The notes below the pieces were generated by a model that was given only the letters and a program-made list of their open reading frames with translations, had not been told where the DNA came from and ran no database searches. Positions 31,077 to 62,521 of a DNA stretch of 64,000 nucleotides are shown piece after piece; within the stretch, counting starts at the first letter, position 1, and each line of letters begins with the position of its first letter. The DNA comes from an uncultured Bacilli bacterium (GTDB taxonomy: Bacteria > Bacillota_I > Bacilli_A > RF39 > UBA660), in assembly GCA_947625505.1 (NCBI GenBank), contig CANQON010000003.1, positions 35,571-99,570 of the forward strand, given 5' to 3'. A program made the position numbers and the translations under genes.

Positions 31077-34000
31077 ATGAAAAAAAGAGTAGTTAATATA
31101 GTGTTGAGCATTGCTATAGCTCTTTCATCTTTAGCTATTGTCTTGTCATTAAAACAAAGTGTATCAGCTGTATCAGTTGGCGGAGACTGGTCTAAGTTGC
31201 CAGGTGGTTCTGGTGGAGGTAGCTGTGGATCAGGAAACTGCTATAACTTAAACTCATCTGGTGTCCGTATTTCCTTGGTGGATGACAATGGTAATCGAAT
31301 TGCAGGAACTAAATCAGTTGATTATTGGTTTGATACTAATGATAGATATCCAAATAAAAATGTTAGTGGATTTGCCCAATATTGTTCAAGTGCTAAATAT
31401 AATAAAAAAGAAGCAATGTCATTAACTAGTACTAGCGGATTTAGTAATTGCAGTCCAAGTTTTAACAATATAAGTAATTTATTAAATGTTAATATTTCTA
31501 ATCCTCGAAGCACAGGTGAGGTTGATACTGTAATGAACGAAATATTACAACTTGGAAAATCAACTAAAGGTGAACGTGGACATGCTAATTGGGCAGTGTA
31601 TGATAAAATATTTGCTCAGACAGGCTATAAAGTAAATGGCCAACAAGTTACGATTTTAAATATCAATGCAGAAGAAGCTAAAAAAATATATATTGAGTTT
31701 GAACCATTAGTTTCTTTTATCAATAGTGGTTCTGCTACTACTGATTCTGTACTTTATGGAACAATATCTGAAGCTGCTGCAATTGGTAATTTGGGTGGAA
31801 TTAATTATGGACTTAATGGACCAATTGTTAACTATATGTTTCAAACGGTTAAATGGGATGGAATATCTTCAACTTCTAGTAAACCATCAGCATATCAACC
31901 TATTAGTAATGTTGCAGGAAGCTTAACAAACTTTTTTGGGGTAAGTAGTAGTGGAAAATATTATGGTTATTCTGTTGGATTTATATATTTAGGAGATTTA
32001 ACAATTGGCTCTAGCTGTGATGAAACTATTCAAAAGGCTTTAAAATCTTATACTGAAGGTAAATCTTCAGCGAGTGATTATGCAAAAGTGGTTAAATCAT
32101 TAAGAAATACTGATTCAACTTGTAAAGCGAATCAAAAAAATTGTGATCATTTAGATTTGGAAGATGTTGCTTTCTATGGATTTACATATGACACTCTTAC
32201 ATGTGAACCTATTGATTGTGGTGATGAAGTATCTGCTATTATAAAAAATTGTTATGGTAGTACGTGTTCTAATAATTCAGGCTCTTATAAGGGTATGACT
32301 TATGAAGAAGCTATTGATTATGCTTTTAAAAATACAAGCGTTGTAAAATCTGTATGTGGAGCAGATGGTTCAAAATGTAATCGTTTATTTAAAGAAAATA
32401 TTGAATTATATGGAATTCCATCATCATCTAATGCTTGTTCTTTATTAAGTTGTGATCAACAAGCTCAAGATGCAACAAATAAATATCGTGGTAATGTTTC
32501 TAAATTAAAACAATATTTAAATTGGTTATATACAAATCAACAAACTGTATATGGTAAAACATTCCCATTGCTTGATTATGCATTATGGCATGACGAATTA
32601 GGTTTATCAGAGCCTAAATGTGGAGAGTTGCCACAATGTGAGCCAACATTAGTAGGGGATAATTGTACGACAGGTAGTGTATCTTTTAAAGATTCAACAA
32701 AAACAAACTGTTGGTATGATGAAGGTGTAGGATATAACATAAAAGGAGGAGCTCGTGGTTCTTCTAAAGACTTGACACTAAGTGGTAATGCTTGTAATGT
32801 AATGTGTCAAGAAACTGTTACATTTAATTTTCCTACAGCAACTGACCCAACAATAGTAAAAGCAGGAAAAACTTTCGTTTGGGGAACATTGAATAACAAT
32901 AGAACTTCAGTTACTTTTGGTACAATGAATTTAACAAAGGTATGTAAAGCACAAACAACAGAAATGATAGATGGTAACTTAATTACATATGATCAAAATG
33001 AAACGCAAATGAAATCTAATTATGCTAAATGGCAAGCTGCTTTAAGCGTAGTTAACTCAAATATTACAGCATCACCTAATGCAAATAAATGTGGTACATG
33101 GAAATTCAATGGTACAGATAAAGCTAAGTATTATGCATCAAAAGGTGGATATTCAGCATGCAATGCTATAAAAAGTAAAGCTATTGATAGTGTAAGAACA
33201 CAAGCTCGTGAAGCTGCTAATTCATATGAAGCTCGATACAATACCAACGTTAGCATTCAAACTAAATATGCTAATGGTGGAGGAGTATGTAAAACTAATA
33301 AAATAAATGATACATGGGCTAATTCAGATCATGTTAAGACAACTATTAAATTAAATTATAGTGAGCCTACAACTCCAAGTAATTATAATACAAATAATAT
33401 AACTTTAGATCGTATTCAAGATTCTAATTCTTATTCAGCTGTTACTAATTTAAGAAATGGTACTAAATTAGATGCTAGTAATAATGCAGGATGTACATCA
33501 ACTTTAAAAGATAAGATAGTATGTCAAAATGGTTCTTGTAAGGTAAGTGGAAAAATTAGAGTTTATGATTGTAGTAATGTAAATAATTGGACATTAAGTC
33601 AAACTTATAGGTTTAATTATCCAGATGAATTATATTGGTATTCAGATAAAACAGATTCATCATTATTAACTCAAACAGATGTAGATCATGATACTAATGG
33701 TAATCGTAATAAACCTTATTATTATGAAATAGGTTATGGTTTACCAACATCATTTACAACTCCTAGAGGAACTTATAATGGTATGGAAGTACAAATATCT
33801 TTAGTTGGATCTTATCAAAATAATAAAGGACATTTTGATGATTTAATTAAACGAGGATATGCAGGATTATATGGCCAAAATTTAAGTTATTTTACATATT
33901 CATGTCCATTTAAAATAAATAATGAATTATTTGCTACAGAATGTGAATATGACGCTAATGGTAATTTAATAGCAGGTTCTCCTGAATATTGCGATCCAAA

Positions 34001-34517
34001 AGATGATCCAACACCAGAGGGAATGCCTACAGGAATCGATGTTGTATTTAGAACTATTGATTTAATTAACGCCAAAGGAACAATCAAGGATGAAATAGAA
34101 AGAGCTTTCCCTGGTAGAGCAGGTGTTGTTGATAGTACATCAAGACGTATTGGTTCTAACTGGGATAAGTTAGATGAAGCAACAATTGTTTCTGTACTAG
34201 ATGATACAGTATATAGTAAAAAAGATCCTCAATATCATATAGAGTTAACAACATCTATTATTCAAAGAATAAGAGGATATAATAAAACAGCTAGAAATAG
34301 TCATTTAGACCCATATTCAGCAATGGAAATAATCTATAATGACAATGATACAGGTACAGGATATACAGGATATATATGCATTGAAGAAAATGGTAAAAAG
34401 TATTGTGGAAGTACATTCTTATCTAGTTTAATATCAAATAGAGAACTTACTGGTACATGTGCTGAAACTAGTAGCACTAGAACAAGAACACTTAACCATT
34501 TAAGAACAGGTTGTTAA
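31077..34517 (+). CDS. Giant secreted cysteine-rich protein, paralog 1 (1146 aa)
   Basis: Signal peptide (MKKRVVNIVLSIAIALSSLAIVLSLKQSVSA) followed by a Gly-rich stretch. About 36 Cys by hand count. No LPXTG motif and no C-terminal TM. It shares blocks with 34605..37877: GTKSVDYW, CQETVTF.(F/L)PT, YYYEIGYGLPT.FTTP, GIDVVFRTIDLIN, RAFPGR, LDDTVYSK..PQYHIELT. Confidence 0.8.
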   Translation: MKKRVVNIVLSIAIALSSLAIVLSLKQSVSAVSVGGDWSKLPGGSGGGSCGSGNCYNLNSSGVRISLVDDNGNRIAGTKSVDYWFDTNDRYPNKNVSGFAQYCSSAKYNKKEAMSLTSTSGFSNCSPSFNNISNLLNVNISNPRSTGEVDTVMNEILQLGKSTKGERGHANWAVYDKIFAQTGYKVNGQQVTILNINAEEAKKIYIEFEPLVSFINSGSATTDSVLYGTISEAAAIGNLGGINYGLNGPIVNYMFQTVKWDGISSTSSKPSAYQPISNVAGSLTNFFGVSSSGKYYGYSVGFIYLGDLTIGSSCDETIQKALKSYTEGKSSASDYAKVVKSLRNTDSTCKANQKNCDHLDLEDVAFYGFTYDTLTCEPIDCGDEVSAIIKNCYGSTCSNNSGSYKGMTYEEAIDYAFKNTSVVKSVCGADGSKCNRLFKENIELYGIPSSSNACSLLSCDQQAQDATNKYRGNVSKLKQYLNWLYTNQQTVYGKTFPLLDYALWHDELGLSEPKCGELPQCEPTLVGDNCTTGSVSFKDSTKTNCWYDEGVGYNIKGGARGSSKDLTLSGNACNVMCQETVTFNFPTATDPTIVKAGKTFVWGTLNNNRTSVTFGTMNLTKVCKAQTTEMIDGNLITYDQNETQMKSNYAKWQAALSVVNSNITASPNANKCGTWKFNGTDKAKYYASKGGYSACNAIKSKAIDSVRTQAREAANSYEARYNTNVSIQTKYANGGGVCKTNKINDTWANSDHVKTTIKLNYSEPTTPSNYNTNNITLDRIQDSNSYSAVTNLRNGTKLDASNNAGCTSTLKDKIVCQNGSCKVSGKIRVYDCSNVNNWTLSQTYRFNYPDELYWYSDKTDSSLLTQTDVDHDTNGNRNKPYYYEIGYGLPTSFTTPRGTYNGMEVQISLVGSYQNNKGHFDDLIKRGYAGLYGQNLSYFTYSCPFKINNELFATECEYDANGNLIAGSPEYCDPKDDPTPEGMPTGIDVVFRTIDLINAKGTIKDEIERAFPGRAGVVDSTSRRIGSNWDKLDEATIVSVLDDTVYSKKDPQYHIELTTSIIQRIRGYNKTARNSHLDPYSAMEIIYNDNDTGTGYTGYICIEENGKKYCGSTFLSSLISNRELTGTCAETSSTRTRTLNHLRTGC

Positions 34518-34604: not shown

Positions 34605-37600
34605 ATGAAGAGATTTTTTAATAGAGTAAAACCATTCTTTTATTGCCTTTTTATATGCGTTTTCTTATCAGTATTTGTAATTTCTGATAATGTTTATGGC
34701 GATTCTAATGCTGGATCCATTCAACCAGGTAGTGGTGGAGGTGGAGGAGGTTCCGGCGGTGGGCATGATAGAAATATCATTGCTTTTGGGTACCGAATTT
34801 CACTTGTATATAATAGTACTAAAGATGGTCATACAGCAGGAACAAGGGTTTCAGGTACCAAATCTGTAGATTATTGGATGATTTCCCACTATAATTTTGA
34901 AGGAAATGGACAGGAATATGGCTTTGGTGCTTTAATTAATAATAATAATAACTGGACTTGGAATGACAAAGGAGAAGCTCATTTTTGTTATCCTTCTAAT
35001 GCTCCAGGTGTTACTAATCGAAAATTTACTAAGCAAGAAGTCTCTGCAGGTAAGACTGGAACAATATCATGCAGTTCTTTTTTAAGTAATGACAATGATA
35101 ATAATAGGATAGATACGTTAACGGGCGTAACGACCAATTTTGCAAGAAGTAAATATGGTGGCGATGATGGATATGAAAGAACTGGTAACTATATAGCTCA
35201 AATTGCTTCTACAAATTTAAAAACAATTTTTGATAAAGATCAAAGTCAATATTCGAGCTATGAATATAATACAATTAATACGTTTTTAGTTAACTGTGGT
35301 TTTAATAAAAACCCAGATGCAAAAACAAATATAAATGAAGCTGTTCGCCAAGATGTTACTCTTCAACTTGAACCAGTTTCAGCCATTCGTGATGGTTCTG
35401 GGCAACAAACTGATGATAGAAATCATAATTGGACCAATGTCTATGTAGGAACGTCTGCAGAACAATCACTTAGTGGAATGATGGCAGACGATGATAATTG
35501 GGCTTATAATAAAGTTACATATTTGCATCCAATTATTTTTGCTCAAAGAAATAATAAAGACAAGGCAAATAATATTTACACTAAAGCTGGTATAGCAATT
35601 TCTGATAGTTTTTCTAATGATAATGTTACTCGCGCTAACTCAAAATCTGCTAGTAGCCCTTTAGCTGTTGCATTATATTATTTAGGAGATTATTTTGGAT
35701 CAAATAATTGTGATGCTGATTTAGTTAGTGCGTTAAAAGCTAATAATAGTACTTCATATAATAGCTTGGTTAACAACTATAAAGCCTCATATCCTGCTTT
35801 AAGCAAGCTTTCATTTAATGATTTTAAAATGATATATTCTGGAAAATATGATAGTGCGTCTTGTTCTCCTTCTTGTGAAGATGAGGCAAATGCGATTTAT
35901 AAAAATTGTTATGGTAAAAGTTGCTCATATATGGGAAAAACGAACTATTCATCTGCTGTGTCAGCCAGTGTTAATAATTTGTCAAAATATGATGCTACAA
36001 ACGAAAACAATGTAAAACTTTATTTGGCAACAAATAGTTCGCCAACGAGTGATGGATTCTTTTGCGTAGATTATGGATGCGACAAAATGGTTGAAGATGC
36101 ATCTATAACATGGAGTGCAAGTATAGGATATCCTAACTCCGTATATGAAAAATATATTACCTGGTTACTTAGCTATCTCCCTACAAAATATCCTGGAACT
36201 AATACCACTTTAATAGCAACCAGCAATTGGCAAGATATAGGACTATCCGGGCCACAGTGTGATTCTTTACCACCTTCACCGCCACCTCCTACTCCAAATG
36301 CTAATTGTACGGGATCGGTTACTTTTTCAGACACAAGTGATTTAGACATAATAAAACAAAATGTAGCATATGAAACTGTTAATGGCAAAAAAGCTGCTAG
36401 TGCATTAATGAATGTTGGAAATACAACTTGTAAATATGTTTGCCAAGAAACGGTTACTTTCACTCTTCCAACTAGACCAAGCACCATAAAAGCTGGAAAA
36501 GTATTTAAATGGGGTAGCAGTACAAATATTAATAGTGAAGAATTTGGAATAATGAATGTAACTGAAAAATGCTATATTAAGCCTACAGTGAAAAAAGAAG
36601 TGGGCACTAGAAGGGTAAAAAATAAAAAAACAGGAAAATGGGAAGATGAAACTTATACAAAGGGATATACTATAAATTGTGCTGGTACACATACATTGCA
36701 TAATAGTGATTTTGAAGACAAATTTACTGGAACAAAAGTTAAATTATATTTTAATGAACCATCTGATAGTTCATTAAAGGTAAATGGTGTTGAATTAAAG
36801 GTTGTTAAAGACACAGTGTCCACAACAGGAAGTGTATCTTGTTCAACAGCACTTTTTAGTAGTAAAGATAGTGCAAAGAATGGATGCTCTAACTCTATAA
36901 CATTTACTGGAAAATATTTACTTAATTATGATGACAAATTGAAATGGGAATCTAGTAAAATTGACAGCTCTTTAATAACAAAGAATAATGTCGATGTTTC
37001 TAAATCAAGTTGGTATTATGAAATAGGATATGGTCTACCTACTGCATTCACCACACCAAACTTTACTGTTGAAGATAGTAACCCTAATTATTTATATGCC
37101 AATATTAGTAATATTGGTAGAACTCAAAATTCAAATCATCATTTTGATAAATTAGTTTCTAGTATTACAGGTTCTTCCACCCTTAAATATTATTGTGGAT
37201 TTGAGATAAAAAACGAGTTGTTTGGTGATGATTGTGAATATGATTCTAATGGTAATTTAAAACCAGGTTCTCCTGATTACTGTGATTTAAAAGAAGATGA
37301 TCAAATAAATCCTGGTTTAGATAAGGAACCAGTAAGAGGTATAGATGTTGTTTTCCGAACTATTGATTTAATAAATAAAAAAGATAATATTGCTTCTCAA
37401 ATTGATAGAGCATTCCCTGGTAGATTGGGAAAAATTGATAATAATGGAAGACAAAAAGGACATAACTGGTCTAATCTAGATATCGATCCTGCTGTTAATG
37501 ATACTAAAATAGCTGATATACTTGATGATACAGTATATTCTAAGGCAAAGCCACAATATCACATTGAATTAACAGTAGCTAAAATATATGATATACGTAA

Positions 37601-37877
37601 AATGAATAGAGAAGCTAAAAGTGCTACACCAAAACTTGATCCTTTTTCAGAAATGACTATTTATAATTATAGTGATGATTCACATATGTCTCCTGGTAAT
37701 ACTGGATACTATTGTGCAGAAGGAACAGATGTAAATGGTGAAAAGCATAAATATTGTGCAAGTCATTTTGTATCAATTTTAAAAGAAAAATATGGCTTAA
37801 CAGGTTCATGTATAGATGGACACCCATATACACAATCTAGAGCTGTATATTATAAGAATAATGGATGCACATCATAA
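34605..37877 (+). CDS. Giant secreted cysteine-rich protein, paralog 2 (1090 aa)
   Basis: Signal peptide followed by a GSGGGGGGSGGG stretch. About 25 Cys in the mature part. Same conserved blocks as paralog 1, plus a PPSPPPPTP linker. Confidence 0.8.
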   Translation: MKRFFNRVKPFFYCLFICVFLSVFVISDNVYGDSNAGSIQPGSGGGGGGSGGGHDRNIIAFGYRISLVYNSTKDGHTAGTRVSGTKSVDYWMISHYNFEGNGQEYGFGALINNNNNWTWNDKGEAHFCYPSNAPGVTNRKFTKQEVSAGKTGTISCSSFLSNDNDNNRIDTLTGVTTNFARSKYGGDDGYERTGNYIAQIASTNLKTIFDKDQSQYSSYEYNTINTFLVNCGFNKNPDAKTNINEAVRQDVTLQLEPVSAIRDGSGQQTDDRNHNWTNVYVGTSAEQSLSGMMADDDNWAYNKVTYLHPIIFAQRNNKDKANNIYTKAGIAISDSFSNDNVTRANSKSASSPLAVALYYLGDYFGSNNCDADLVSALKANNSTSYNSLVNNYKASYPALSKLSFNDFKMIYSGKYDSASCSPSCEDEANAIYKNCYGKSCSYMGKTNYSSAVSASVNNLSKYDATNENNVKLYLATNSSPTSDGFFCVDYGCDKMVEDASITWSASIGYPNSVYEKYITWLLSYLPTKYPGTNTTLIATSNWQDIGLSGPQCDSLPPSPPPPTPNANCTGSVTFSDTSDLDIIKQNVAYETVNGKKAASALMNVGNTTCKYVCQETVTFTLPTRPSTIKAGKVFKWGSSTNINSEEFGIMNVTEKCYIKPTVKKEVGTRRVKNKKTGKWEDETYTKGYTINCAGTHTLHNSDFEDKFTGTKVKLYFNEPSDSSLKVNGVELKVVKDTVSTTGSVSCSTALFSSKDSAKNGCSNSITFTGKYLLNYDDKLKWESSKIDSSLITKNNVDVSKSSWYYEIGYGLPTAFTTPNFTVEDSNPNYLYANISNIGRTQNSNHHFDKLVSSITGSSTLKYYCGFEIKNELFGDDCEYDSNGNLKPGSPDYCDLKEDDQINPGLDKEPVRGIDVVFRTIDLINKKDNIASQIDRAFPGRLGKIDNNGRQKGHNWSNLDIDPAVNDTKIADILDDTVYSKAKPQYHIELTVAKIYDIRKMNREAKSATPKLDPFSEMTIYNYSDDSHMSPGNTGYYCAEGTDVNGEKHKYCASHFVSILKEKYGLTGSCIDGHPYTQSRAVYYKNNGCTS

Positions 37878-38086: not shown

Positions 38087-38500
38087 ATGAAAGAATCTTT
38101 TTGGGCAGTAATGATTGTAACATTGGGAATTATGTCAATATTTTTGGTTTATTACTTTCAAACAGTCACAAATACTAGTGAACATAACTATGAGCTTTTG
38201 AAAGAGACAACCGAAGCTGCAATGTTTGACGCTTTAGATTTAGCTGCTTATCGTAATGATGAAACAATCCGTATAGATCAAGAAAAATTTGTTGCAAGTT
38301 TCATTAGAAGATTTGCACAAGATGCTACTTTAGCTCATGCATATGATATTAGCATATATGATGTACATGAAGAACCCCCTAAGGTAAGTATTAAAATAGA
38401 TACATTTAATAACTTAGCTAGATTTGCTTGGGGTAGTGAAGAAACAAAATTCTTATTGTCTAATAGAATTGATGCAATACTAGAAACAAAATATGATTAG
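38087..38500 (+). CDS. TadE-like / minor-pilin-like protein (N-terminal MKES + TM)
   Basis: The N-terminus MKESFWAVMIVTLGIMSIFLVYYF shares the M[KR]ES[IF]-then-TM pattern with 43063.. and 43583... RBS AGGAGGTG. Confidence 0.4.
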   Translation: MKESFWAVMIVTLGIMSIFLVYYFQTVTNTSEHNYELLKETTEAAMFDALDLAAYRNDETIRIDQEKFVASFIRRFAQDATLAHAYDISIYDVHEEPPKVSIKIDTFNNLARFAWGSEETKFLLSNRIDAILETKYD

Positions 38501-38529: not shown

Positions 38530-39405
38530 ATGAATAATTTAGCAATTTCATTAAAAAAGTTTTTTACGAATAAAAATACTGTAACAATTATTGGTGTTGT
38601 TGCAATCTTAGTTATTTTGTATTTCTTATATACAAGTACTGTAAATAATGCAACAGAAAAAGTTCAAGTTCCTGTTGCAGCCAATACAATTAACCCACAA
38701 ACTCAAATTACAGCAGAAGACGTTACATATGTTGAAGTAGCTAATGCTGCTAAACCAGATGACGTAATTATGAATGATAGTGAGATTATTGGTAAATATA
38801 CTGGTGTTGGTATGACTGTTCCACAAGGTAGTATGTTTTATGCAGGTGTTGTTGTTGAAAAAGAAGATTTACCTGGTAGTTGGTTAAAATTACTAGAGAA
38901 AGATGCTTTAGGTAATTTACAAAAACCTTATTACTTCCCAGTTAATGTAACAACAACATTTGGTAACTCAATTCAACCTGGTGATTATGTTGACTTCTAC
39001 GTAAAAACATATAATGAACAAGATGTATTAATGTTTGGTAGAATGATTGAAAACGTAAAAGTTTTAGCAGTAACTGACTCTGATGGACAAAATGTATTTA
39101 GAAGCCAAGGAGATATTGGTGATCCTGCCTTCCTAGATATTGGTTTATCTGATGAACTTCATGATGTATTTAGAAAATCAGAAAATATAAATGAAGTTGA
39201 AATTGAATTAATTGTTGTACCACATGGTGGTGCTGTACCTGAAACTGACCTAGAAGTTAATGTGTCAAGTGAGTATTTAAGAGATTTCATTGTCGCACAT
39301 TCAGCAGAAATTCCTAAAAATGCTGAAGCAGAGGATGCAACTACACCAGAAGGTGGAGCTACAACTCCAGCTACAACAACTCCAGCAACTACTCCTGCTA
39401 ACTAA
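38530..39405 (+). CDS. CpaB/RcpC-like Flp pilus assembly protein (TM + SAF domain)
   Basis: N-terminal TM (VTIIGVVAILVILYFLY). SAF-like region VPVAANTINPQTQITAEDVTYVEV...IIGKYTGVGMTVPQGSMF. RcpC-like region GDYVDFYV...VKVLAVTD. Thr/Pro tail. Confidence 0.6.
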   Translation: MNNLAISLKKFFTNKNTVTIIGVVAILVILYFLYTSTVNNATEKVQVPVAANTINPQTQITAEDVTYVEVANAAKPDDVIMNDSEIIGKYTGVGMTVPQGSMFYAGVVVEKEDLPGSWLKLLEKDALGNLQKPYYFPVNVTTTFGNSIQPGDYVDFYVKTYNEQDVLMFGRMIENVKVLAVTDSDGQNVFRSQGDIGDPAFLDIGLSDELHDVFRKSENINEVEIELIVVPHGGAVPETDLEVNVSSEYLRDFIVAHSAEIPKNAEAEDATTPEGGATTPATTTPATTPAN

Positions 39406-55519: not shown

Positions 55520-55567
55520 TTATCCTCCTCTTATTAAATATTAACTTGTTTGAAAGATGGTGTAAAA

Positions 55568-57601
55568 ATGAGCCAAAAAGATGATATTAGAGATCTCGCT
55601 AGACAACTTGGTATAGATAGTGGAAGTAGTTCATCAGAATTAGATCAGCTAAAAAAAATAGCTGAATCTGTAGGTATGAGTTCATATAATGGTATATCTA
55701 ATGCTGATACTGATGAGTTGCAAAATAGACTAAGAAATTTATCTAGAGAACGTGACTTAAAAAAACAAGCAGAGAATGCTTCTAATGGACGTGCTGTACC
55801 AAGGAATAATTATAAGAATGGTTTAGGTAATCATAATAGCAACAATAATAGCTCAAATATTAGTCCACAAGCTGTAGGAAATCAAGATCGAAGTGCAGCT
55901 GAAGCTGCTTCTATTAATGCAGCTAATGCTAAAAGAAAAATTGCTAATTTGAAGATGGCAGCAGCCCAAGAAATTATTAAAAAATATGCCGCAGCTCATG
56001 GAGTACCAGAAGGTGTTACTCAAAAAGCAATGGATTCTAAAGCTGGACAAAAAATAATGGATAAGGCTTTAAATAAAAAAAGCCTAGGTAGAAGAGCTTT
56101 TGATAAGATAATGAGTCGTGGCGATGATAAACCTGATAAGCCAGATTCTGAAAAAACAGTTGATGAGAAAAGTAGAGATGAAGAACAAAAAAGATTACAA
56201 GATGGGGAAATTAATTTTGCTTTACCATTAAAAGTTATTAAGTGGTTGGTAATTATCACACCAATGATTTCTTTGGTTTTGTTTTTCTTATTAATAATTG
56301 TATCTGCTTTAAATGATGAGAAAGCATCATCAATGATTTTAGCAGGTATGGCTTCTAGCTCAAAGAAAGAATTATTATCTGAAGTTGGAAGAGGAGATTC
56401 CAGTATTACTGAGTTAGCAATTGGTAAGGGAAATGGGGATTTTCCAGATGAATATTACAAGCGACTTGAGTCATTAGGAAATGTTTATTCTTCACAAAAA
56501 CAATGTGAGGGTGATGAATGTTTAGAACGTGACGAGTTTCTATATTATTTAAAAATAGCGGATATTAATTTAAGATATAAGAATAAATATCATGTTGATT
56601 TAGATTGGTATTTAATTGCGGCAACTGATTTATATTTTGCTGAGTCAACTGAAGATACAATGCGTGCTAATTTAAGTAGTTATAATAAAGATACTGTTGA
56701 AGATTATAGTACGTTATCTGAATTAGATTGGGATAATGATTTTACTAAGATGCCAGGATACCAATATTTAGATGCTAATGATTCTAGATATGATTTAAAT
56801 ATCTTAGCTAAAAACATGGTAAAAAAGAAGACAATACAAACTTGTTCTGATGGAAATAGTGTTGTTAAAACACAAGAAGATGAAGATGTTGAAGACATGT
56901 ATTTCGAGTTAGGTGGAGAAAAACGCCTAAGTTGTGGTTCAGGTCAAAAATATAATATTTCAAGCACTTATACTTTAGATAAAGATAAATATGATGAATT
57001 TATGCTTGAATATATTGATAAAAAAATGATGACACCTGGAACAGGTAGTGGTAATCATCATAGTGTAAGTGGTAATAGTTTATCTAATGCTTTTGTTAAT
57101 TTAGCTGTTGATCAGTTGAATGATCCTTCAGCTAAAGGAGGAGAAAAATATTGGCGTCATATGGGATGGACTTATCGTGTTGCTTGGTGTGCTGCTTTTG
57201 TTTCATGGAATATTGCTAATACCGTTCATGATGGAGTTCCTTTAAGTGATATTATTAAAAAACAAACATCAGCCGTATATGAATTTATGAATTATTTTTA
57301 TCAAAGTAGTGATTCAAATATTCAATTTTACTATAATGATAATTGTTCAAGGCTAAAAGGAAAAAATGGTAGTGGTACTTATACACCAAAAGAAGGAGAC
57401 TTAATATTCTTTGATTGGGAACAAACATGGGATGCTAAAATGCCTACTTGTTGGGGATGTGGGCCAGATCATGTTGGCATTGTTCAAAGAGTAGAAAATG
57501 ATAATATTATTACTATTGAAGGTAATTCAAGCGATGCAGTTAATGAAAGAAGTTATCCAATTACTAGTTGTAAAGTAATTGGCTTTGGATCTTGGTATTA
57601 G
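55568..57601 (+). CDS. T4SS-associated cell-wall hydrolase: long cytoplasmic N-region, TM, C-terminal CHAP domain (VirB1 analogue)
   Basis: TM segment VIKWLVIITPMISLVLFFLLIIVSAL. CHAP catalytic pattern AWCAAFVSW ... GDLIFFDW ... PDHVGIVQ ... IEGNS. Confidence 0.75.
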   Translation: MSQKDDIRDLARQLGIDSGSSSSELDQLKKIAESVGMSSYNGISNADTDELQNRLRNLSRERDLKKQAENASNGRAVPRNNYKNGLGNHNSNNNSSNISPQAVGNQDRSAAEAASINAANAKRKIANLKMAAAQEIIKKYAAAHGVPEGVTQKAMDSKAGQKIMDKALNKKSLGRRAFDKIMSRGDDKPDKPDSEKTVDEKSRDEEQKRLQDGEINFALPLKVIKWLVIITPMISLVLFFLLIIVSALNDEKASSMILAGMASSSKKELLSEVGRGDSSITELAIGKGNGDFPDEYYKRLESLGNVYSSQKQCEGDECLERDEFLYYLKIADINLRYKNKYHVDLDWYLIAATDLYFAESTEDTMRANLSSYNKDTVEDYSTLSELDWDNDFTKMPGYQYLDANDSRYDLNILAKNMVKKKTIQTCSDGNSVVKTQEDEDVEDMYFELGGEKRLSCGSGQKYNISSTYTLDKDKYDEFMLEYIDKKMMTPGTGSGNHHSVSGNSLSNAFVNLAVDQLNDPSAKGGEKYWRHMGWTYRVAWCAAFVSWNIANTVHDGVPLSDIIKKQTSAVYEFMNYFYQSSDSNIQFYYNDNCSRLKGKNGSGTYTPKEGDLIFFDWEQTWDAKMPTCWGCGPDHVGIVQRVENDNIITIEGNSSDAVNERSYPITSCKVIGFGSWY

Positions 57602-57610
57602 GAGGCAAAT

Positions 57611-58288
57611 ATGAAGAAAAAATTATTTTTAATAATCTTTGTACTCTTATTAACGGGATGTACAAGTCAATATAATATAAATATTAGTAATGATAAAATA
57701 GAAGAAGAAATAGTTTCTAATATTTTAGTACAAGATATTCCTGTTCAATCAACTGCTGAGATACAAGCTGGTATTGAACTAGATGATCAAGTAACTCCTT
57801 TTATTGAAGACGATCAATATCCTTTCATTGATGATGAAAAGGAAAAATATAATAAGACAGTTGAGAAGAAAACAACTCAAACAATTGTTAAATTAAATTA
57901 TAATTATACTTTTGATGAATATCGAAGATCTAGAGTATACAATACTTGCTTTCAAAATAAAGAATTAGTAGAAAATAAAAATGATTATTCCTTAAATTTT
58001 GGAGGTAAATTTTATTGTTTATATGGTGATGAATTAAAAGTAAATATAAAAACAAAAAATAAAGTTTTATATAATAATGCCGATGAAGTAAAAGGAAATA
58101 CTTATACTTGGATTATTAATAAAGATAATCTTAATAAAGTAAATATTTCTATGCAAATATCTAAAACACCTGCCGTTGTTACTTCTGTAGCAATGATTAT
58201 TATTGGCATAGTAGGTGTTATATTAATAGCTTTTGGTTTCGTTGCTTATAAAAATATTAAGAATCGTGAAAGTGTCAATGAAATATGA
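57611..58288 (+). CDS. Lipoprotein with C-terminal TM anchor (paralog 1)
   Basis: Lipobox LLLTGC. Shares QYN(I/V), NAD.V.GNTY.W and the C-terminal TM plus basic tail with 59664..60350. Confidence 0.6.
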   Translation: MKKKLFLIIFVLLLTGCTSQYNINISNDKIEEEIVSNILVQDIPVQSTAEIQAGIELDDQVTPFIEDDQYPFIDDEKEKYNKTVEKKTTQTIVKLNYNYTFDEYRRSRVYNTCFQNKELVENKNDYSLNFGGKFYCLYGDELKVNIKTKNKVLYNNADEVKGNTYTWIINKDNLNKVNISMQISKTPAVVTSVAMIIIGIVGVILIAFGFVAYKNIKNRESVNEI

Positions 58289-58302
58289 TGTGAGGTGTAA
58301 AA

Positions 58303-59655
58303 ATGAAAAAGATAGTAAAAACTTTAGTGCTAATAATTTGTCTTTGTGTTCTTATGCCTACATCTTCAACAGCTTATGAATTTGATTCTAAAAACAAAGA
58401 ACAATCTGCTAAGATAACACGTAGCGAAATATATGAATTGTATAATTTATATAAAGATATATTGATAACACCAAAGTCTTCTAATTTTGGAGTTATTGGC
58501 TATAATGGAGTTTGTAGCACAGTTAATGTAAATGGAACAAGTGTACCACTTGATGATTATATTGCTGGTGTTGTAAAAAGAGAGTTAGGTAGTGGTTCTA
58601 TTGAAGTTTTAAAAGCTCAAGCGATAGCTGCTCGTTCCTTTTTACTATATCAAAAGAGAAATAGTTCAGATTGTAGTGTAGTTAATGGACAATCTTTTCA
58701 AGCTTATGCTGGTGTTGATGAATCAAATCCTAGTGATCAAGTATATTTTCAAGCTGCTAGAGAAACTTCTGGTATGGTAGTTAGCCGTAATGGAGCTATT
58801 GCTAATACCCAGTATCAATCATATCCTGCTGGACAATTTCAAACAGAGGATAGTAGTGGATGGCATGTAAAGTTTCAAAGATGGTCTGATGATCCATCAT
58901 CTACATGGACTTGGAATGGGCCTCCAAAAGCAACTGTAAAATCTATATCGTCAGGAGTTGAGATGGATTATAATAACGCTCATAACTGGGGTATGAGTCA
59001 AACTATAGCGCGATATCTTGCTAATGCTGAGGGATATACATATCAAAAAATCATTGAGTTATTTTATGCTGAACCAATTGTAACTTTGTCTGATGGTAAT
59101 TATTCTGGTAATATAACTTATTTAGATTCTGATTTTGGACAAATTACATATTTTAATCAAGGAGATTATCCAAATTATTACTATTCAGAAGATCCATTAA
59201 ATTCTAATAAATATGGAGGTACTATAAAAAGTCATGGTTGTGGTCCTACATCAGCTGCTATTGTTGCATCTAGCATATTGAAAAAAAATATCGATCCTGT
59301 AACTATGACCCAAAAGGTATGTTTACGTGGAGGATGTACTAGTAGTGGATCTTATAATGATAAATTAGGTGAAACACTTAGTGGAGACTATGGATTAAGT
59401 GTAAAAATGAGTAATAGTGATCAAGAAGTAATTAATGCCTTAGGTTCTGGTAATTCATTAGTTATTGTTTTAATGGGACCTGGTACATTTACTACAGGAG
59501 GACATTTTATTGTTTTAACAGGAGTTAACTCTAGTGGACAAGTATCTGTTGCTGATCCTGCTAGTAGAGATAGAACTAATACTAAATGGTTTTCATTTAA
59601 TACAATCGTAGAACAAAGAAAAACTTATGCTAATTATACGATTGTTTCAAGATAG
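58303..59655 (+). CDS. Secreted bifunctional wall hydrolase-like protein: SpoIID/LytB domain + C39-like cysteine peptidase domain
   Basis: Signal peptide present. SpoIID signature DYIAGVVKRELGSGSIEVLKAQAIAARSF. C-terminal SHGCGPTSAAIVAS ... GGHFIVLTGV (papain-like Cys/His). Confidence 0.65.
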   Translation: MKKIVKTLVLIICLCVLMPTSSTAYEFDSKNKEQSAKITRSEIYELYNLYKDILITPKSSNFGVIGYNGVCSTVNVNGTSVPLDDYIAGVVKRELGSGSIEVLKAQAIAARSFLLYQKRNSSDCSVVNGQSFQAYAGVDESNPSDQVYFQAARETSGMVVSRNGAIANTQYQSYPAGQFQTEDSSGWHVKFQRWSDDPSSTWTWNGPPKATVKSISSGVEMDYNNAHNWGMSQTIARYLANAEGYTYQKIIELFYAEPIVTLSDGNYSGNITYLDSDFGQITYFNQGDYPNYYYSEDPLNSNKYGGTIKSHGCGPTSAAIVASSILKKNIDPVTMTQKVCLRGGCTSSGSYNDKLGETLSGDYGLSVKMSNSDQEVINALGSGNSLVIVLMGPGTFTTGGHFIVLTGVNSSGQVSVADPASRDRTNTKWFSFNTIVEQRKTYANYTIVSR

Positions 59656-59663
59656 GTGATAGA

Positions 59664-60350
59664 ATGAAAAAAATATTTATTATAGCTGCATTGATGCTTT
59701 TATGTGTCGGTTGCGAAGCTCAATATAATGTTGAAATAAAAGATGACGGAACAGTTAAAGAAACTTTAAGAGCTATTGAAGATAAAGATTTCTTTGAAGA
59801 GTATGAAAAATCATCCACAGGTAGAGTTGTATCATTTATATTAGAGCCATATTTAAATGAGTTAAATAATAATAAATATGAAGTAAAGAATGATATAGCT
59901 GAAGATCATGGTGGAGTAGTTATTACAAGAAACTATTCTAGCATTGAGACATATATCAATAGCACAATCTTATCAAGTCAATTTACGGACAAGGTTAATT
60001 TTGAAAAAGATAGTCATACAGTAACTATTACAGCAAAAGGAGCTTTTTCAAAAGATGAACAAAATCAAGATAAGATACCTGTAGATGAAGGAATTATTTC
60101 AATTACCATTCCTTATAAGGTTAAAGAACATAATGCCGATAGAGTAGATGGCAATACTTACATTTGGGAGTTTAGTGCTGTTGATTCAGAAGACGAAGAG
60201 TTAAAAATTGTCTATGATGATTCCAAATTAAGTGGTAAAAATAATTATTTACTTATTGGAACTATTGGTGGTATTATTATCTTGTTAGTTGGAGGCTTTT
60301 TGATGTATAATGTTATAAGAAGCCGTAGAGCTAATGCTAATAAGATTTAA
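59664..60350 (+). CDS. Lipoprotein with C-terminal TM anchor (paralog 2)
   Basis: Lipobox LLCVGC. Same layout as 57611..58288. Confidence 0.6.
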   Translation: MKKIFIIAALMLLCVGCEAQYNVEIKDDGTVKETLRAIEDKDFFEEYEKSSTGRVVSFILEPYLNELNNNKYEVKNDIAEDHGGVVITRNYSSIETYINSTILSSQFTDKVNFEKDSHTVTITAKGAFSKDEQNQDKIPVDEGIISITIPYKVKEHNADRVDGNTYIWEFSAVDSEDEELKIVYDDSKLSGKNNYLLIGTIGGIIILLVGGFLMYNVIRSRRANANKI

Positions 60351-60367: not shown

Positions 60368-62521
60368 TTGAAACTCAAATTTAGAGCAGATACAAAAGAT
60401 GTAGTCATCTTTTGCATATTTTCAGCAGTTTTATTTTTCTTAATATGTTTAGCAGTTTCAAATTTAGGAACATTTATATCTAGTAATACTTTTTCAGGAT
60501 TAAATATTATTCCTGCTCTTACTAAGTATTTATACGTAACTATATTATTATTTATAGTAGCTATTGTAGCCATGTTCTTAAGTGTTCAATCTTGGTTTAT
60601 TGAACGTGAAGAAGGATTTGGAATACAAATAGGTGCTAAAAAAGAGAAGAATTATTCTCGTTGGGCTAAAGATAAAGAAATTCAAAAAGATAATGATGTA
60701 GTAGCCGTTGATCCATTATCACCAAAAGCTGATGCAGGTGGAATTCCACTTATGATGAACCCTAAAAAAGTATGGGTTGATAATGGTGGATATCATAACT
60801 TAGTAATAGGTTCTACTGGTGCTGGTAAAACACAAACAACCGTATTACCAATGGTTAACTTATTAGCTAAGCATGATGAATCAATGATTATTACGGACCC
60901 TAAAGGTGAAATATATGAACAAACTTCTAATTATTTAAGAAGTTTAGGTTATAATATTGTTTTACTTAACTTCCGTGATCCTCAACAAGGTAATAGTTGG
61001 AATCCAATGTATTTACCATATTCTTTATATAAAGATAATAAAATTGATAAGTCTATTGAGTTATTAGAGGACTTAGCTGCTAATATCTTAAAAGATCCTA
61101 CAGCTAAAGGACAAGATCCTTTCTGGGAAAATACTTCAGCTGACTATTTTGCAGGTTTAGCTTTTGCTTTATTTGAAGATGGTGATGAAAATCAAATTAA
61201 CTTAAATAGTATTAACTTAATGACAACTGTTGGAGAAGAAAAGTTAGCTAATACAACTTATATAAAAGAATACTTTAGTTTTAAAGATCCTGCTAGTACA
61301 GCTTATATTAAAGCATCATCTACATTGATGGCCCCAAATGAAACAAAAGGATCAATCCTTTCTGTATTTAAACAAAGAGTTCAATTGTTTGCATCTCGTA
61401 CTAATTTATCTGAGATGTTAGCAAATAATGACTTTGATATGCGTGATATTGGTCGTAAAAAGACAGCTGTATTCATTGTAATACAAGATGAAAAAACGAC
61501 ATATCATACTTTAGTAACAATTTTCTTAAAGCAATGTTATGAAACACTTATTTCTGTTGCTCAAGAAAGTGGAGGAAAATTACCTCATCGTACAAACTTT
61601 ATATTGGATGAGTTTGCGAACATGCCACCTTTAAAGGATGTTACAACCATGGTAACAGCTGCTCGTTCAAGAAATATTCGTTTTACGTTCATTATCCAGA
61701 ACTTTTCACAATTATATGAAGTATATGGAAAAGAAAATGGTGAAACTATTAAAGGTAACTGTGGTAACATTATTTACTTAATTAGTACTGAATTAAGTGC
61801 TCTTGAAGAAATAAGTAAAATGTGTGGTGAAGTAAAATCAAAAGAAAAAGAAAAGACTTCTTCAACACCATTAGTTACAGTTAGTGATTTACAACGTTTG
61901 GAACAATGGTCAACTATTATTCTTCGTATAAGAATGATGCCATTTAAGACTAAGTTAACACCAAACTTTAAAATGGATTGGGGACATAGTTTCCCTAAAG
62001 CAGAATATCCACATCGTCAAGAAATACCAGTTAATATTTTCGATTTAAAAACTTTTGTTGAAAAGAAAAGAGAAGAAAAAATTAATAAGTTAATTGGTGG
62101 AGAAGGAGGAGCTCCTGCTGGTGGAGGAGTAATTCCACCTACACCTTTTGGTAATGGTACACCTAGTAGTCCATTCTCTTCAAGACCAATTCCTCCAAGT
62201 ACTCCTAAACCATTTGGTGGAGATAGTCAAGCTAATGGTGGATTAAATCTTGATAATTTAGTAAAGAGAATTGATGAAAAAATTGCGGAGATGGAAAAAG
62301 AGGATAAAATGCGTGAAGAAGCTGAAAAGCAAGGCACTATACCTGGAAGTATTGCTAAAGAACCAGTAGATAGTAAACCTACTATGGGAGCACCTGAAAT
62401 TCCAGGACCTATTCCTCAAGCACCAAAACCAATGGTTGAACCAAAGCAATCATTTGTTCCTGATAAACAAGAGGGAATTAGTGATGATCAATTCTTTGAT
62501 GATTTCTTTGGAGACGATTAA
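60368..62521 (+). CDS. VirD4/TraG-type type IV coupling protein with Pro/Gly-rich acidic C-terminal tail
   Basis: TTG start with RBS GGAGGTG. Two N-terminal TMs. Walker A VIGSTGAGKTQTTV, Walker B NFILDEFANMPP. The tail ends DDQFFDDFFGDD. Confidence 0.85.
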   Translation: MKLKFRADTKDVVIFCIFSAVLFFLICLAVSNLGTFISSNTFSGLNIIPALTKYLYVTILLFIVAIVAMFLSVQSWFIEREEGFGIQIGAKKEKNYSRWAKDKEIQKDNDVVAVDPLSPKADAGGIPLMMNPKKVWVDNGGYHNLVIGSTGAGKTQTTVLPMVNLLAKHDESMIITDPKGEIYEQTSNYLRSLGYNIVLLNFRDPQQGNSWNPMYLPYSLYKDNKIDKSIELLEDLAANILKDPTAKGQDPFWENTSADYFAGLAFALFEDGDENQINLNSINLMTTVGEEKLANTTYIKEYFSFKDPASTAYIKASSTLMAPNETKGSILSVFKQRVQLFASRTNLSEMLANNDFDMRDIGRKKTAVFIVIQDEKTTYHTLVTIFLKQCYETLISVAQESGGKLPHRTNFILDEFANMPPLKDVTTMVTAARSRNIRFTFIIQNFSQLYEVYGKENGETIKGNCGNIIYLISTELSALEEISKMCGEVKSKEKEKTSSTPLVTVSDLQRLEQWSTIILRIRMMPFKTKLTPNFKMDWGHSFPKAEYPHRQEIPVNIFDLKTFVEKKREEKINKLIGGEGGAPAGGGVIPPTPFGNGTPSSPFSSRPIPPSTPKPFGGDSQANGGLNLDNLVKRIDEKIAEMEKEDKMREEAEKQGTIPGSIAKEPVDSKPTMGAPEIPGPIPQAPKPMVEPKQSFVPDKQEGISDDQFFDDFFGDD

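Follow-up and report, generated by a model that had tools for sequence, protein, structure and literature searches.

A 34-kb block of 31 genes, all on the plus strand, lies at positions 28702-62521 of a 64-kb stretch (hereafter the window) of contig CANQON010000003.1 from an uncultured bacterium of the order RF39. The block is composed of two linked modules, a pilus set resembling the tight adherence (Tad)/Flp type upstream and a monoderm conjugation-type type IV secretion system (T4SS) downstream. Our comparisons suggested that it is a chromosomally fixed and vertically inherited descendant of a Bacillota conjugation apparatus, in which the envelope and motor parts of mating-pair formation appear to have all been kept, with relaxase, auxiliary proteins, single-stranded DNA-binding protein (SSB), primase, topoisomerase and recombinase absent from the window. 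In the open reading frame (ORF) listing, the gaps between genes of the block were mostly 4-30 nt, with some overlaps (41774/41774 and 53732/53735), and only 18 nt separated the Tad-like module from the T4SS. The initial annotation of the window, made from the letters alone, had placed more than 30 tightly packed same-strand genes at 31077-62521. This array was confirmed, with its start moved to 28702, because two ORFs of 533 and 226 amino acids (aa) are conserved with the block in relatives and travel with it. The sequence motifs quoted in that annotation were all present in the translations, and the flanks that it named, scpAB and nfeD-SPFH, were confirmed from the translations and from Pfam on homologous loci (ScpA/ScpB upstream, NfeD and Band_7 downstream). 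Between a tRNA-Leu(CAA) gene and the block lie yfhO and scpB/scpA, the latter two on the minus strand; directly 3' of the VirD4 gene follow the housekeeping genes nfeD and SPFH/Band_7 and then rmuC, as seen in identical contigs. The window is of low GC content (0.21-0.34), and the repeats within 24-64 kb were internal paralogs only. The positions of the features are collected in Table 1.

The T4SS half is solid. VirB4, VirD4 and VirB6 were found together with a VirB3/PrgI protein and a VirB1-type hydrolase, and the T4SS core proposed initially was thus upheld, firmly for VirB4, VirD4 and the CHAP and SpoIID hydrolases and on weaker profile evidence for the VirB2-like, VirB6 and VirB3 proteins. 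VirB4 scored above the cut-offs of P-loop_TraG, AAA_10 and DUF87 and matched the CD1110 family at 7e-51, while VirD4 matched TraG-D_C at 2.7e-24 and passed the cut-off of NF045973 (the CD1115 family; 293.9 versus 250). VirB4 and VirD4 also weakly matched the archaeal proteins CedD and CedB, respectively. The VirD4 tail (62050-62521) comprises ~150 aa, is Pro-rich and ends in the acidic motif DDQFFDDFFGDD; the lengths of such low-complexity tails vary widely among relatives. The protein encoded just upstream of VirB4 matched positions 98-276 of VirB4_plasma at 1.6e-12, corresponding to the N-terminal third of a full-length mycoplasma-type VirB4. This split is kept in all related loci, in pBMB67, in the pLS20 family and in an integrative and conjugative element (ICE) of Thomasclavelia ramosa, indicating that the genes are genuinely arranged in this way, as in the "TrsD" situation of PMC12102498, and that no frameshift is involved. 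VirB6 matched TrbL_4 at 2.2e-5 (24.4 bits versus a cut-off of 27), the MMCAP2_0566 family at 4.6e-11 and, in hhalign, the pLS20_p028 family (96.6%), and no match to it was found among PDB sequences. Among 28 homologues of the VirB3-like protein, PrgI was matched in seven and VirB3 in one, and its hidden Markov model (HMM) matched a PrgI-annotated gene of pBMB67 at 2.9e-5. At the position of the VirB1-type protein, relatives have different hydrolase domains (C39_2, M23 and glucosaminidase), and the trio at 57611-60350, in which two lipoprotein-like paralogs flank the SpoIID hydrolase, was conserved in ~27 loci.

Six VirB2-like paralogs precede these genes. Five of the six matched the T4SS_pilin family PF18895, all below its cut-off. 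The four at 45060-47780 (repeat family D1) are laid out as a signal peptide, a variable ectodomain, a transmembrane (TM) segment, a QKEDEIKKGQQ loop, a second TM segment and a Cys motif. All six share a C-terminal module (TM, QKEDEIKKGQQ-F-KR, TM, C-x-x-CF) of VirB2/TrbC topology, and two of the six have ectodomains of ~300 aa. The AlphaFold2 (AF2) model of one paralog contained a helical hairpin at residues 29-100 with a predicted local distance difference test (pLDDT) score of 70-81, and a Foldseek search with this model returned nothing meaningful. A perfect promoter-like site (12/12, TTGACA-17-TATAAT) at 48995-49023 precedes the 134-aa VirB2-like gene that starts at 49050.

The Tad-like half is real yet very divergent. 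Its secretion ATPase, a hexameric motor of the CpaF/TadA type, was firmly assigned, scoring 5.2e-27 against T2SSE (PF00437), above the Pfam cut-off. Its best PDB match was CpaF (6.4e-17, over both domains), whereas VirB11 aligned over the C-terminal domain only; in NCBIfam, it matched VirB11 at 3e-32 and the TadA type at 7.9e-27, both below the cut-off, and the two were not separable. It is ~30% identical to the "CpaF/VirB11 family protein" of the pLS20 family. The ATPase C-terminus (40480-40842) is a tail of ~120 aa rich in Pro, Asn and Gln, and the length of the ATPase ranges from 363 to 497 aa among relatives. The remaining parts of the motor were supported through remote homology. CpaB/RcpC was found, matching TIGR03177 at 4.5e-11 (below the cut-off) and, weakly, RcpC and SAF (the latter at 2.4e-4, at the cut-off); hhalign aligned it with annotated plasmid CpaB at 99.9%, and the RF39 HMM matched plasmid CpaB at 1e-41 to 1e-45. 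Its C-terminus (39340-39405) is of low complexity and ends in TTPATTTPATTPAN. The TadB-like protein aligned with plasmid homologues over ~250 columns (hhalign, 98%, E 2e-13), with HMM matches of 1.4e-17, 1.6e-10 and 5.5e-12, and one of the plasmid homologues (in L097; related loci are designated by L numbers) passes PF00482 T2SSF with 26.6 bits against a cut-off of 25.2. On Bacillus plasmids, the gene next after TadB was related to the TadC-like protein by tblastn (1e-4) and hhalign (96%, E 1.7e-9), and HMM matches of 2.5e-13 and 3.3e-11 were obtained for TadC. Neither TadB nor TadC of the window, nor any of 56 homologues, had a direct Pfam match; PDB sequences searched with a profile of the TadB alignment yielded nothing, and TadC had no T2SSF match and no detectable paralogy with the TadB family (hhalign, 7%). 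Since their profiles align with plasmid proteins encoded beside homologous ATPases, one of which passes the Pfam T2SSF model, we accepted the two as a probable platform pair, with TadB-type function assigned through remote homology. The DUF5411 protein matched plasmid DUF5411-like and pLS20 gene-36 proteins, pooled into one set, at 96.8% in hhalign and the pLS20-family proteins alone at 57.5%; as DUF5411 is also annotated at the equivalent position on pBMB53, it is probably the counterpart of pLS20 gene 36.

Neither Pfam nor NCBIfam gave any match for the TadB, TadC, Flp, TadE-like or TadZ-like proteins when those of the window and 148 homologues were scanned singly. The Flp-like major pilin candidate has an invariant N-terminus, MKEA[AT]GE[AL]N[ML]TV, across ~100 homologues; behind it come a hydrophobic stretch of ~20 residues and a tail rich in Cys. 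The gene is often found in tandem copies among relatives. The leader of the protein (MKEAAG/EANLTV in the window) does not conform to the canonical G/XXXXEY, as Glu is at +1 rather than +5 and Tyr is lacking; it matched no pilin family, and hhalign with plasmid small proteins was not significant. The gene is flanked by an 11/12 extended -10 promoter-like site (42568-42597) and a bidirectional hairpin terminator-like site (42922-42943). Together with the site at 48995-49023, these pattern matches fit separately boosted expression of the two filament subunits. The two proteins that follow aligned with a plasmid DUF4320 set over their N-terminal 65 columns (hhalign, ~93%), whereas TadE (PF07811), the name initially given to them, was matched by neither the window proteins nor 36 homologues. 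A RicinB lectin domain (2.1e-14) is fused to the homologue in L010 (13340-14269), and a Flg_new (Listeria-Bacteroides) repeat was seen at 1.3e-10 in one homologue, probably the 370-aa protein of L076 (7016-8128). Such fusions are expected of minor or tip pilins, and a lectin or Flg_new extension would fit a sugar-binding pilus tip.

The last gene of this half had been called TadZ with a degenerate P-loop. The AF2 model (pLDDT 71.7 overall and >80 in the C-terminal domain, residues 155-326) bore this out in part, with Foldseek matches to HypB, ParA, ParF, BcsQ and MinD at E 3e-5 to 3e-3 and a degenerate Walker A motif (GVKNVTKSAGATT). No sequence match to families or PDB entries was obtained, no sequence relatives were found outside the RF39 clade, and hhalign with plasmid CpaE-type ATPases (4%) was not significant. 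The protein is conserved at 48-87% identity across 80 species loci. We named it TadZ-like and not TadZ, because genomes of the L075 type carry it in addition to a canonical AAA_31/ParA CpaE. Nor could the Tad set be called complete, as had been proposed, given the deviating Flp-like leader and the lack of a match to a prepilin peptidase (TadV/CpaA, A24) in any ORF scanned in the 64-kb window. A metallophosphoesterase and an Rce1-like (CAAX/CPBP family) protease are encoded as a pair that lies directly next to the Flp cassette in loci of the L075 type (L075:6767-8305, minus strand) and, in L009, adjoins the point where the Tad half ends (L009:15518-17078, minus strand), and a CAAX-family protease gene lies within the conjugation operon of pLM5578 (L093:25751-26452). 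This adjacency could be plain synteny, or could reflect processing of the pilin by a peptidase other than A24.

Table 1. Positions of the genes of the block and of the nearest tRNA gene in the window (TM, transmembrane segment)
Feature	Position	Strand	Evidence or remark
tRNA-Leu(CAA)	24755-24841		~4 kb upstream of the block
533-aa membrane protein, ~4 TM and large ectodomain; first conserved gene of the block	28702-30303	+	TM scan
226-aa protein, signal peptide and C-terminal anchor; conserved partner of the 533-aa gene	30293-30973	+	
Giant secreted Cys-rich surface protein, 1146 aa, 36 Cys; putative adhesin	31077-34517	+	Signal peptide, Cys count
Second giant secreted Cys-rich protein, 1090 aa; paralog of the 1146-aa protein	34605-37877	+	Repeat families D2, D3, D5-D7
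DUF5411 protein, 137 aa, N-terminal TM and ~110-aa ectodomain; pseudopilin-like	38087-38500	+	PF17424 7.5e-49
CpaB/RcpC-like SAF-domain protein	38530-39405	+	TIGR03177, hhalign
CpaF/VirB11-family secretion ATPase, disordered C-terminal tail	39433-40842	+	T2SSE
TadB-like platform protein, T2SSF-type by remote homology	40869-41774	+	hhalign
TadC-like second platform protein	41774-42559	+	tblastn, hhalign, HMM
Flp-like major pilin candidate, 94 aa	42627-42911	+	N-terminal motif, hydrophobic stretch
Two minor-pilin-like, DUF4320-like proteins, 168 aa (43063-43569) and 153 aa (43583-44044)	43063-44044	+	
TadZ-like protein: N-terminal domain, disordered linker, ParA/MinD-fold domain	44061-45041	+	AF2, Foldseek
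Four VirB2-like paralogs, 435, 174, 134 and 149 aa	45060-47780	+	PF18895 1.6e-3 to 2.8e-2, TM scan
396-aa protein, N-terminal TM and large ectodomain, inside the VirB2-like array	47797-48987	+	
Two VirB2-like paralogs, 134 aa (49050-49454) and 384 aa (49534-50688)	49050-50688	+	PF18895 4.9e-4, 6.9e-4
VirB6/TrbL-like polytopic channel protein	50709-52871	+	TrbL_4, NCBIfam, hhalign
VirB3/PrgI-like protein, 2 TM	52889-53218	+	PrgI 0.045 (weak)
Separate VirB4 N-terminal-like (TrsD-like) protein, 183-201 aa	53130-53735	+	True start likely near 53184
VirB4 ATPase, C-terminal part	53732-55519	+	P-loop_TraG 5.7e-12, VirB4_plasma 2.2e-103
VirB1-type wall hydrolase, TM and CHAP	55550-57601	+	CHAP 1.6e-8
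Lipoprotein-like protein, 225 aa	57611-58288	+	TM, lipobox
SpoIID and Peptidase_C39_2 hydrolase	58303-59655	+	SpoIID 2e-14, Peptidase_C39_2 3e-13
Lipoprotein-like protein, 228 aa; paralog of the 225-aa protein	59664-60350	+	TM, lipobox
VirD4 coupling protein, Pro-rich acidic C-terminal tail	60368-62521	+	T4SS-DNA_transf PF02534 1.5e-57

The block is widely distributed and is inherited with its surroundings. A scan with the TadZ-like profile identified carriers in at least 204 species-representative genomes, which are metagenome-assembled genomes of uncultured gut "Bacilli/Tenericutes/Mollicutes" plus some evidently mislabelled bins, and include Ca. Fimihabitans (order RF39, family CAG-822) and two circular genomes of ~1.2 Mb. 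The records of L012, L021, L038, L046, L052, L061, L082 and L083 are titled Roseburia sp., Muribaculaceae or Bacteroidaceae and are probably mis-binned or mislabelled. VirB4 has thousands of relatives in the databases, of which the best 120 cluster representatives were all at least 81% identical over the full length; the cluster representatives of the ATPase showed 66-99% identity. When VirB4 was clustered at 50%, the RF39 clade stood isolated, the next representatives being at 43-44% and those after them, from Thomasclavelia, Solobacterium and a Mycoplasmatota plasmid, at 30-34%. The upstream scpAB and downstream rmuC recurred in relatives with 80-85% ATPase identity. Across species loci, the median identity was 80% for VirB4 (range 70-96%, at least 48 species loci), 75% for the ATPase, 71% for the VirB4 N-terminal protein and 68% for TadB, as compared with 59-60% for ScpA/B, 29% for YfhO and 26-36% for the surface-exposed parts of the block. 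Such a pattern points to prolonged vertical descent, with purifying selection strong and the surfaces diversifying, and fits neither an ICE nor an ICE remnant.

The two halves were contiguous in 41 of the 50 species loci with enough flank, with the ATPase and platform genes upstream of the TadZ-like gene and VirB6, VirB3 and VirB4 downstream, and the identities of the Tad half and the T4SS half co-varied across species (Spearman 0.57-0.74, p<=2e-5). These data, with the short junction, supported the proposed single composite unit, and the block appears to behave as one unit of two halves. In a minority of loci, the halves were separate. In L009, the array of the 533/226-aa genes, a giant protein, DUF5411, CpaB, the ATPase and TadB/C runs into the nusA-infB operon without an adjacent T4SS, and in L087 metabolic genes come after the Tad half, again with no T4SS adjoining. 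Loci of the L075 type carry Flp-Flp-TadE-TadE-TadZ-like genes, obg and then canonical CpaE/T2SSE/T2SSF/T2SSF genes, with no T4SS. In L071, the pilin/TadZ-like cassette is joined to the T4SS, and unrelated genes occupy the expected position of the motor. The modules thus appear to be separable but usually not separated.

Family scans for mobility genes covered every ORF of at least 150 aa in the window and gave no match to families of relaxases, tyrosine or serine recombinases, DDE transposases, Rep, Par, SSB or primases, in agreement with the initial annotation on relaxase, integrase, transposase and Rep. The relaxase of a conjugative T4SS was accordingly missing from the 64 kb, in which no oriT search was made, and no att-like direct repeats flanked the block. 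The Pfam annotations of the related loci retrieved likewise contained no relaxase, SSB, primase or topoisomerase. Two contigs with the same ATPase sequence differ just upstream of scpB (L011:1-4693 versus L010:1-4786), one carrying PcfJ/PcfK/DnaB-like genes of the kind usual on mobile elements and the other a DEAD/ResIII helicase gene, suggesting that the neighbourhood outside the block is variable and the block fixed.

Homologues of both halves were encoded on conjugative plasmids of Bacillota: the nearest plasmid relatives of the ATPase were "CpaF/VirB11 family" proteins of pLS20-family Bacillus plasmids and Listeria pLM5578, and those of VirB4 came from pBMB67-type plasmids of B. thuringiensis. 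On pBMB67, the RF39 HMMs matched eight families, four of the T4SS half (VirD4 7e-80, VirB4 3e-90, VirB4-N 8e-23 and VirB3 3e-5) and four of the Tad half (CpaB 3e-41, ATPase 1e-54, TadB 6e-12 and TadC 3e-11). The T4SS genes of this plasmid are ordered MobP3 relaxase, VirD4, TrbL, PrgI, a 227-aa protein and VirB4; further along come an SLH protein, 851-aa and 134-aa proteins, SAF/CpaB, an AAA ATPase, the secretion ATPase, 305-aa, 244-aa and 89-aa proteins and DUF4320. pBMB53 and a Parageobacillus plasmid are similar, with DUF5411, CpaB and a T2SS-F protein annotated. In pLS20, pBatNRS213 and pLM5578, a single conjugation operon contains an adhesin, gene 36, "VirB11" and genes 38 to 41, and then the T4SS genes (VirD4, VirB6, DUF5592, a ~190-aa protein, VirB4 and a hydrolase), with a MobP2 relaxase last in the Bacillus plasmids. 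The pairing spans genes 36-54 of pLS20, and both modules co-reside on pAW63 as well. Directly compared with pLS20 genes 38 and 39, RF39 TadB and TadC gave weak scores (hhalign, 5% and 33%), and the link to the pLS20 platform genes runs only through proteins of B. cereus-group plasmids (94-98%).

Taken as a group (pBMB67, pBMB53, Parageobacillus, the pLS20 family, pAW63/pXO2 and pLM5578/pLM80), these plasmids resemble the block in gene order, which starts with a large protein of the surface or adhesin kind and continues with a small N-terminally anchored protein (DUF5411 or gene 36), CpaB where present, the ATPase, a pair of membrane proteins (~300 and ~250 aa), a small pilin-like gene product and DUF4320. 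They also have, as the block does, VirD4 of the CD1115 family, VirB6/TrbL and PrgI/DUF5592, along with a VirB4 that is split and a hydrolase for the wall. They differ in carrying a MobP2 or MobP3 relaxase, Toprim/primase, topoisomerase, and partition and replication genes, none of which was found in the window. Conversely, the VirB2-like array, the RF39 type of Flp, the TadZ-like protein, the 533-, 226- and 396-aa proteins and the giant Cys-rich proteins had no homologue detectable by HMM on the plasmids, and on the B. cereus-group plasmids, CpaB and the motor are separated by a canonical AAA ATPase of the CpaE type. The plasmid ATPase has been called VirB11 and its neighbours "unknown" or "conserved hypothetical" in reports in which Gram-positive elements are said to form no conjugative pili (PMC8557374, PMC1196294, PMC9673590). 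By profile comparison, Tad-like sets with a T2SSF-type platform pair, CpaB, DUF5411, DUF4320 and pilin-like ORFs were noted on pLS20-family, Listeria, B. thuringiensis and Parageobacillus plasmids, namely around the "VirB11-like" ATPase at L092:19448-23307, L093:19431-23006, L095:5434-9491, L096:7134-14997, L097:5038-11186 and L100:30260-36471, where the genes are annotated as hypothetical. The assumption that the pairing of the two halves was unheard of was therefore not sustained, both being present on relaxase-bearing conjugative plasmids of Bacillus, Parageobacillus and Listeria. The composite is thus inherited within a class of Bacillota conjugation systems; the Tad-plus-T4SS architecture is probably ancestral to that class rather than a new fusion. 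What appears to distinguish the window is that every gene for DNA processing and maintenance has been lost and that the block has become fixed in a chromosome.

The second close parallel is with the Patescibacteria, in which chromosomal and mostly relaxase-less T4SS, nested in MPF_FATA, have been described (PMC12102498). These systems comprise TrsD, PrgI, VirB6, 2-11 divergent VirB2-like genes (PF18895 being among the profiles) and downstream hydrolases, and are essential for epibiotic growth in Saccharimonadia (PMC12102498). The RF39 T4SS shares with them a chromosomal location, a lineage-wide occurrence in reduced genomes, the lack of a relaxase (here, in the window), a TrsD-like separate VirB4 N-terminus, PrgI/VirB3, VirB6, a VirB2-like array, here of six PF18895-like paralogs, and hydrolases encoded downstream of virB4. 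The premise that a relaxase-less chromosomal T4SS with VirB2-like arrays would be new was consequently not sustained either. The RF39 system differs in belonging to another phylum, in keeping VirD4 conserved within the operon, where that of Patescibacteria is usually distant, and in having a Tad-like module upstream, whereas neither such a module nor one of the VirB11 type is reported beside the Patescibacteria-clade T4SS in PMC12102498. Searches of the literature available to us (RF39 with T4SS, Tad or pilus; DUF4320/DUF5411) returned no description of the RF39 system. The block combines two known kinds, the pAW63/pLS20-type conjugative T4SS with a "VirB11" module and the Patescibacteria-type co-opted T4SS, and is not categorically new.

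Other known systems were more distant. The mycoplasma ICE (MICE), whose host lineage phylogenetically neighbours RF39, provide the best NCBIfam matches of VirB4 (VirB4_plasma, the Mbov_0397 family) and VirB6 (MMCAP2_0566); the MICE family scored below the cut-off for RF39 VirB4 (346 versus 590 bits), and its model is a single protein of ~890 residues, whereas RF39 VirB4 is split. MICE carry a DDE recombinase and are mobile, and we know of no Tad-like module in them. With canonical Tad/Flp systems (Aggregatibacter and Caulobacter; Bifidobacterium and Micrococcus among monoderms), the block shares a CpaF-like ATPase, a probable platform pair, CpaB and a small pilin-like protein whose short leader ends in Gly, as well as putative minor pilins and an accessory protein with a predicted ParA/MinD fold. 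It differs from them in its pilin leader, in that no TadV/CpaA peptidase was seen in the window, in platform and pseudopilin proteins that fall below every Pfam/NCBIfam model, in a TadZ-like protein that is not similar to CpaE, and in being embedded in a T4SS operon. In Sulfolobales, the Ups pilus and the Ced importer are unlinked. As a working analogy, in the thin pilus of the Gram-negative IncI plasmid R64 and in archaeal Ups/Ced, a type IV-family pilus joins cells for a T4SS-family translocator (both forms of pilus-assisted transfer are summarized in PMC12102498); they belong to other classes of pilus and T4SS and are not homologous to the RF39 block module for module.

Several conserved genes of the block have no recognizable family. 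The 533-aa protein, found at the same position in L007, L009 and L010 and in 30 loci by HMM, matched no Pfam or NCBIfam family; its 226-aa partner gave 39 HMM matches in related loci, and a terminator scan placed a hairpin at the end of that gene (30972-30992). The two giant paralogs that follow had no Pfam match, and the 1146-aa protein, which evolves fast (28-42% identity), also had none among PDB sequences. They are Cys-rich in their N-terminal parts and share a strongly conserved C-terminal region (GIDVVFRTIDLIN...AFPGR...PQYHIELT), and probably represent an uncharacterized family of surface proteins. In the plasmid systems, adhesins or large surface proteins occupy the equivalent position. 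The 396-aa protein within the VirB2-like array was conserved (42 HMM matches in related loci) and had no match among families or PDB sequences. The remaining genes of the window are ordinary chromosomal ones (htpG, bacA, a tRNA methyltransferase and Ham1). A defence cluster at 2-3655 encodes an AIPR abortive-infection protein cut by the window edge, a C-5 cytosine methyltransferase and an AspBHI-N/Mrr-type restriction endonuclease.

We favour, with middling confidence, the interpretation that the block is a domesticated, conjugation-derived machine for contact-dependent transfer with a non-conjugative, lineage-essential role between cells, for example the delivery of protein or other cargo, because the DNA-processing genes have been shed and the motors are under stronger selection than the housekeeping neighbours. 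The block may be analogous in this respect to the relaxase-less T4SS of Patescibacteria, in a likewise reduced-genome, auxotrophic group, RF39 being reported as a gut order that has yet to be cultivated, whose genomes are highly reduced and which shows numerous auxotrophies (PMC12306168). From the composition, homology, synteny and conservation observed and from the absence of mobility genes from the window, we infer pilus production, physical cooperation of the halves, and the direction and substrate of transport as follows. The CpaF/VirB11-family ATPase, acting on the TadB/TadC-like platform with a CpaB ring and the ParA/MinD-fold organizer, would extend a thin pilus of the Flp-like protein and the minor pilins, some of them lectin-tipped in relatives. 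This pilus, together with the giant Cys-rich surface proteins, would find a partner cell and hold it or pull it in. The cell wall would be opened by the CHAP and SpoIID/C39 hydrolases, and the T4SS, made up of VirB6, VirB3, the split VirB4 and the VirB2-like array as a wall-spanning conduit, would deliver into or onto the partner whatever substrate VirD4 selects. Several points weigh against this interpretation. The window covers 64 kb of the genome, the rest of which could hold a relaxase with oriT or a gene for a prepilin peptidase. The CD1115 family of VirD4 is otherwise one of DNA-transfer systems, the protein carries the TraG-D_C domain, and no effector candidate was identified. The Flp, minor-pilin and TadZ assignments rest on topology, remote profiles or a model of medium confidence. 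Finally, the loci with the Tad half alone (L009 and L087) or with another motor (L075 type) indicate that physical cooperation is not obligatory.

There is a modest chance that the block is still a DNA-transfer apparatus, with DNA-processing functions located elsewhere in the genome, with co-resident elements mobilized in trans, or with relaxase-independent exchange of chromosomal DNA among conspecifics, which, like the ICE-dependent chromosomal transfer of mycoplasmas, would offset genome decay in a reduced-genome lineage. The curated CD1115 cut-off passed by VirD4 and its TraG-D_C domain, the mycoplasma ICE families as best matches of VirB4 and VirB6, and the fact that the characterized homologues (pLS20 and pAW63) all transfer DNA are consistent with it, and the genes for coupling protein and relaxase often lie apart from virB4 (PMC12102498). 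Nevertheless, the DNA-processing genes that plasmid and ICE relatives keep beside their T4SS were found neither in the scanned ORFs of the window nor in the annotated related loci, and here VirD4 is followed by nfeD, SPFH and rmuC. Acquisition of DNA instead of its transfer, with the pilus capturing DNA and the T4SS core importing it as in H. pylori ComB or archaeal Ced/Ups, would suit a relaxase-less, chromosomal system that combines a pilus with a VirB4/VirB6 core, as would the weak matches to CedD and CedB and the requirement of type IV pili for Ced-mediated import (PMC12102498). We regard such a competence machine as quite improbable, as the VirD4 coupling protein is conserved in the operon, the block contains no DNA-binding or ComEA/ComEC-like parts, and its closest homologues are export systems. 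ComB, to our knowledge, has no VirD4 coupling protein.

The block might also comprise two independent organelles, an adhesion or twitching pilus of the Tad type and a separate T4SS, adjacent only by inherited gene order. The Tad halves that stand alone in L009 (beside nusA/infB) and L087, the L075-type cassette with canonical CpaE, T2SSE and two T2SSF proteins but no T4SS, and the promoter- and terminator-like sites that pattern scans detected inside the block all speak for such a separation, as does the T. ramosa locus, a normal ICE with a T4SS core, sortase pili and a serine recombinase and no Tad genes. We consider it unlikely, since the same pairing recurs in the conjugation operons of unrelated replicons (pLS20, pAW63, pLM5578 and pBMB67), which argues for functional coupling of the halves, and since the halves are mostly contiguous, their identities co-vary, and in L071 the pilin/TadZ-like cassette stays with the T4SS and not with the motor. 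An ordinary or decaying ICE with an accessory Tad locus, whose integrase and relaxase would lie just outside the region, was rejected and is largely refuted, leaving it very improbable. The tRNA-Leu gene is a possible point in its favour, and all components of the block have ICE or plasmid homologues, but scpAB and yfhO intervene between the tRNA gene and the block, no recombinase, relaxase or flanking repeat was found in the window, and the conserved position, intact ORFs and high VirB4 identity are incompatible with decay or recent insertion; the initial conclusion that the block is not an ICE was supported, also by its vertical inheritance across many species.

The favoured interpretation, of a domesticated machine for transfer between cells, extends the idea of co-opted relaxase-less monoderm T4SS from Patescibacteria to Bacilli. 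The block takes up ~3% of a 1.2-Mb genome and its motors are more conserved than scpAB, suggesting that it is central to the RF39 way of life, and it offers a concrete target for the cultivation of RF39, perhaps with a partner cell, and for imaging and metatranscriptomics. It further provides a Bacillota example of VirB2-like arrays beside an MPF_FATA-type VirB4; MPF_FATA systems without VirB2 had left the origin of the Patescibacteria arrays unclear to the authors of PMC12102498. The comparison also exposed an unrecognized Tad-like module, with a T2SSF-type platform, CpaB and pilin-like genes, in tractable Gram-positive conjugative plasmids, so that the use of pili by Gram-positive T4SS is directly testable with pLS20 in Bacillus subtilis. 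More tentatively, and with some doubt, RF39 may depend on a pilus-plus-T4SS organelle for an obligate relationship between cells, either epibiont- or parasite-like attachment and exchange of cargo with gut microbes or host cells, paralleling Saccharibacteria, or a relaxase-independent chromosomal exchange of the mycoplasma type. If this is true, the "hypothetical" genes beside "VirB11" of pLS20, pAW63 and pXO2-type plasmids would build a Tad-like conjugative pilus, which would contradict the textbook view that conjugation in Gram-positive bacteria is pilus-less.

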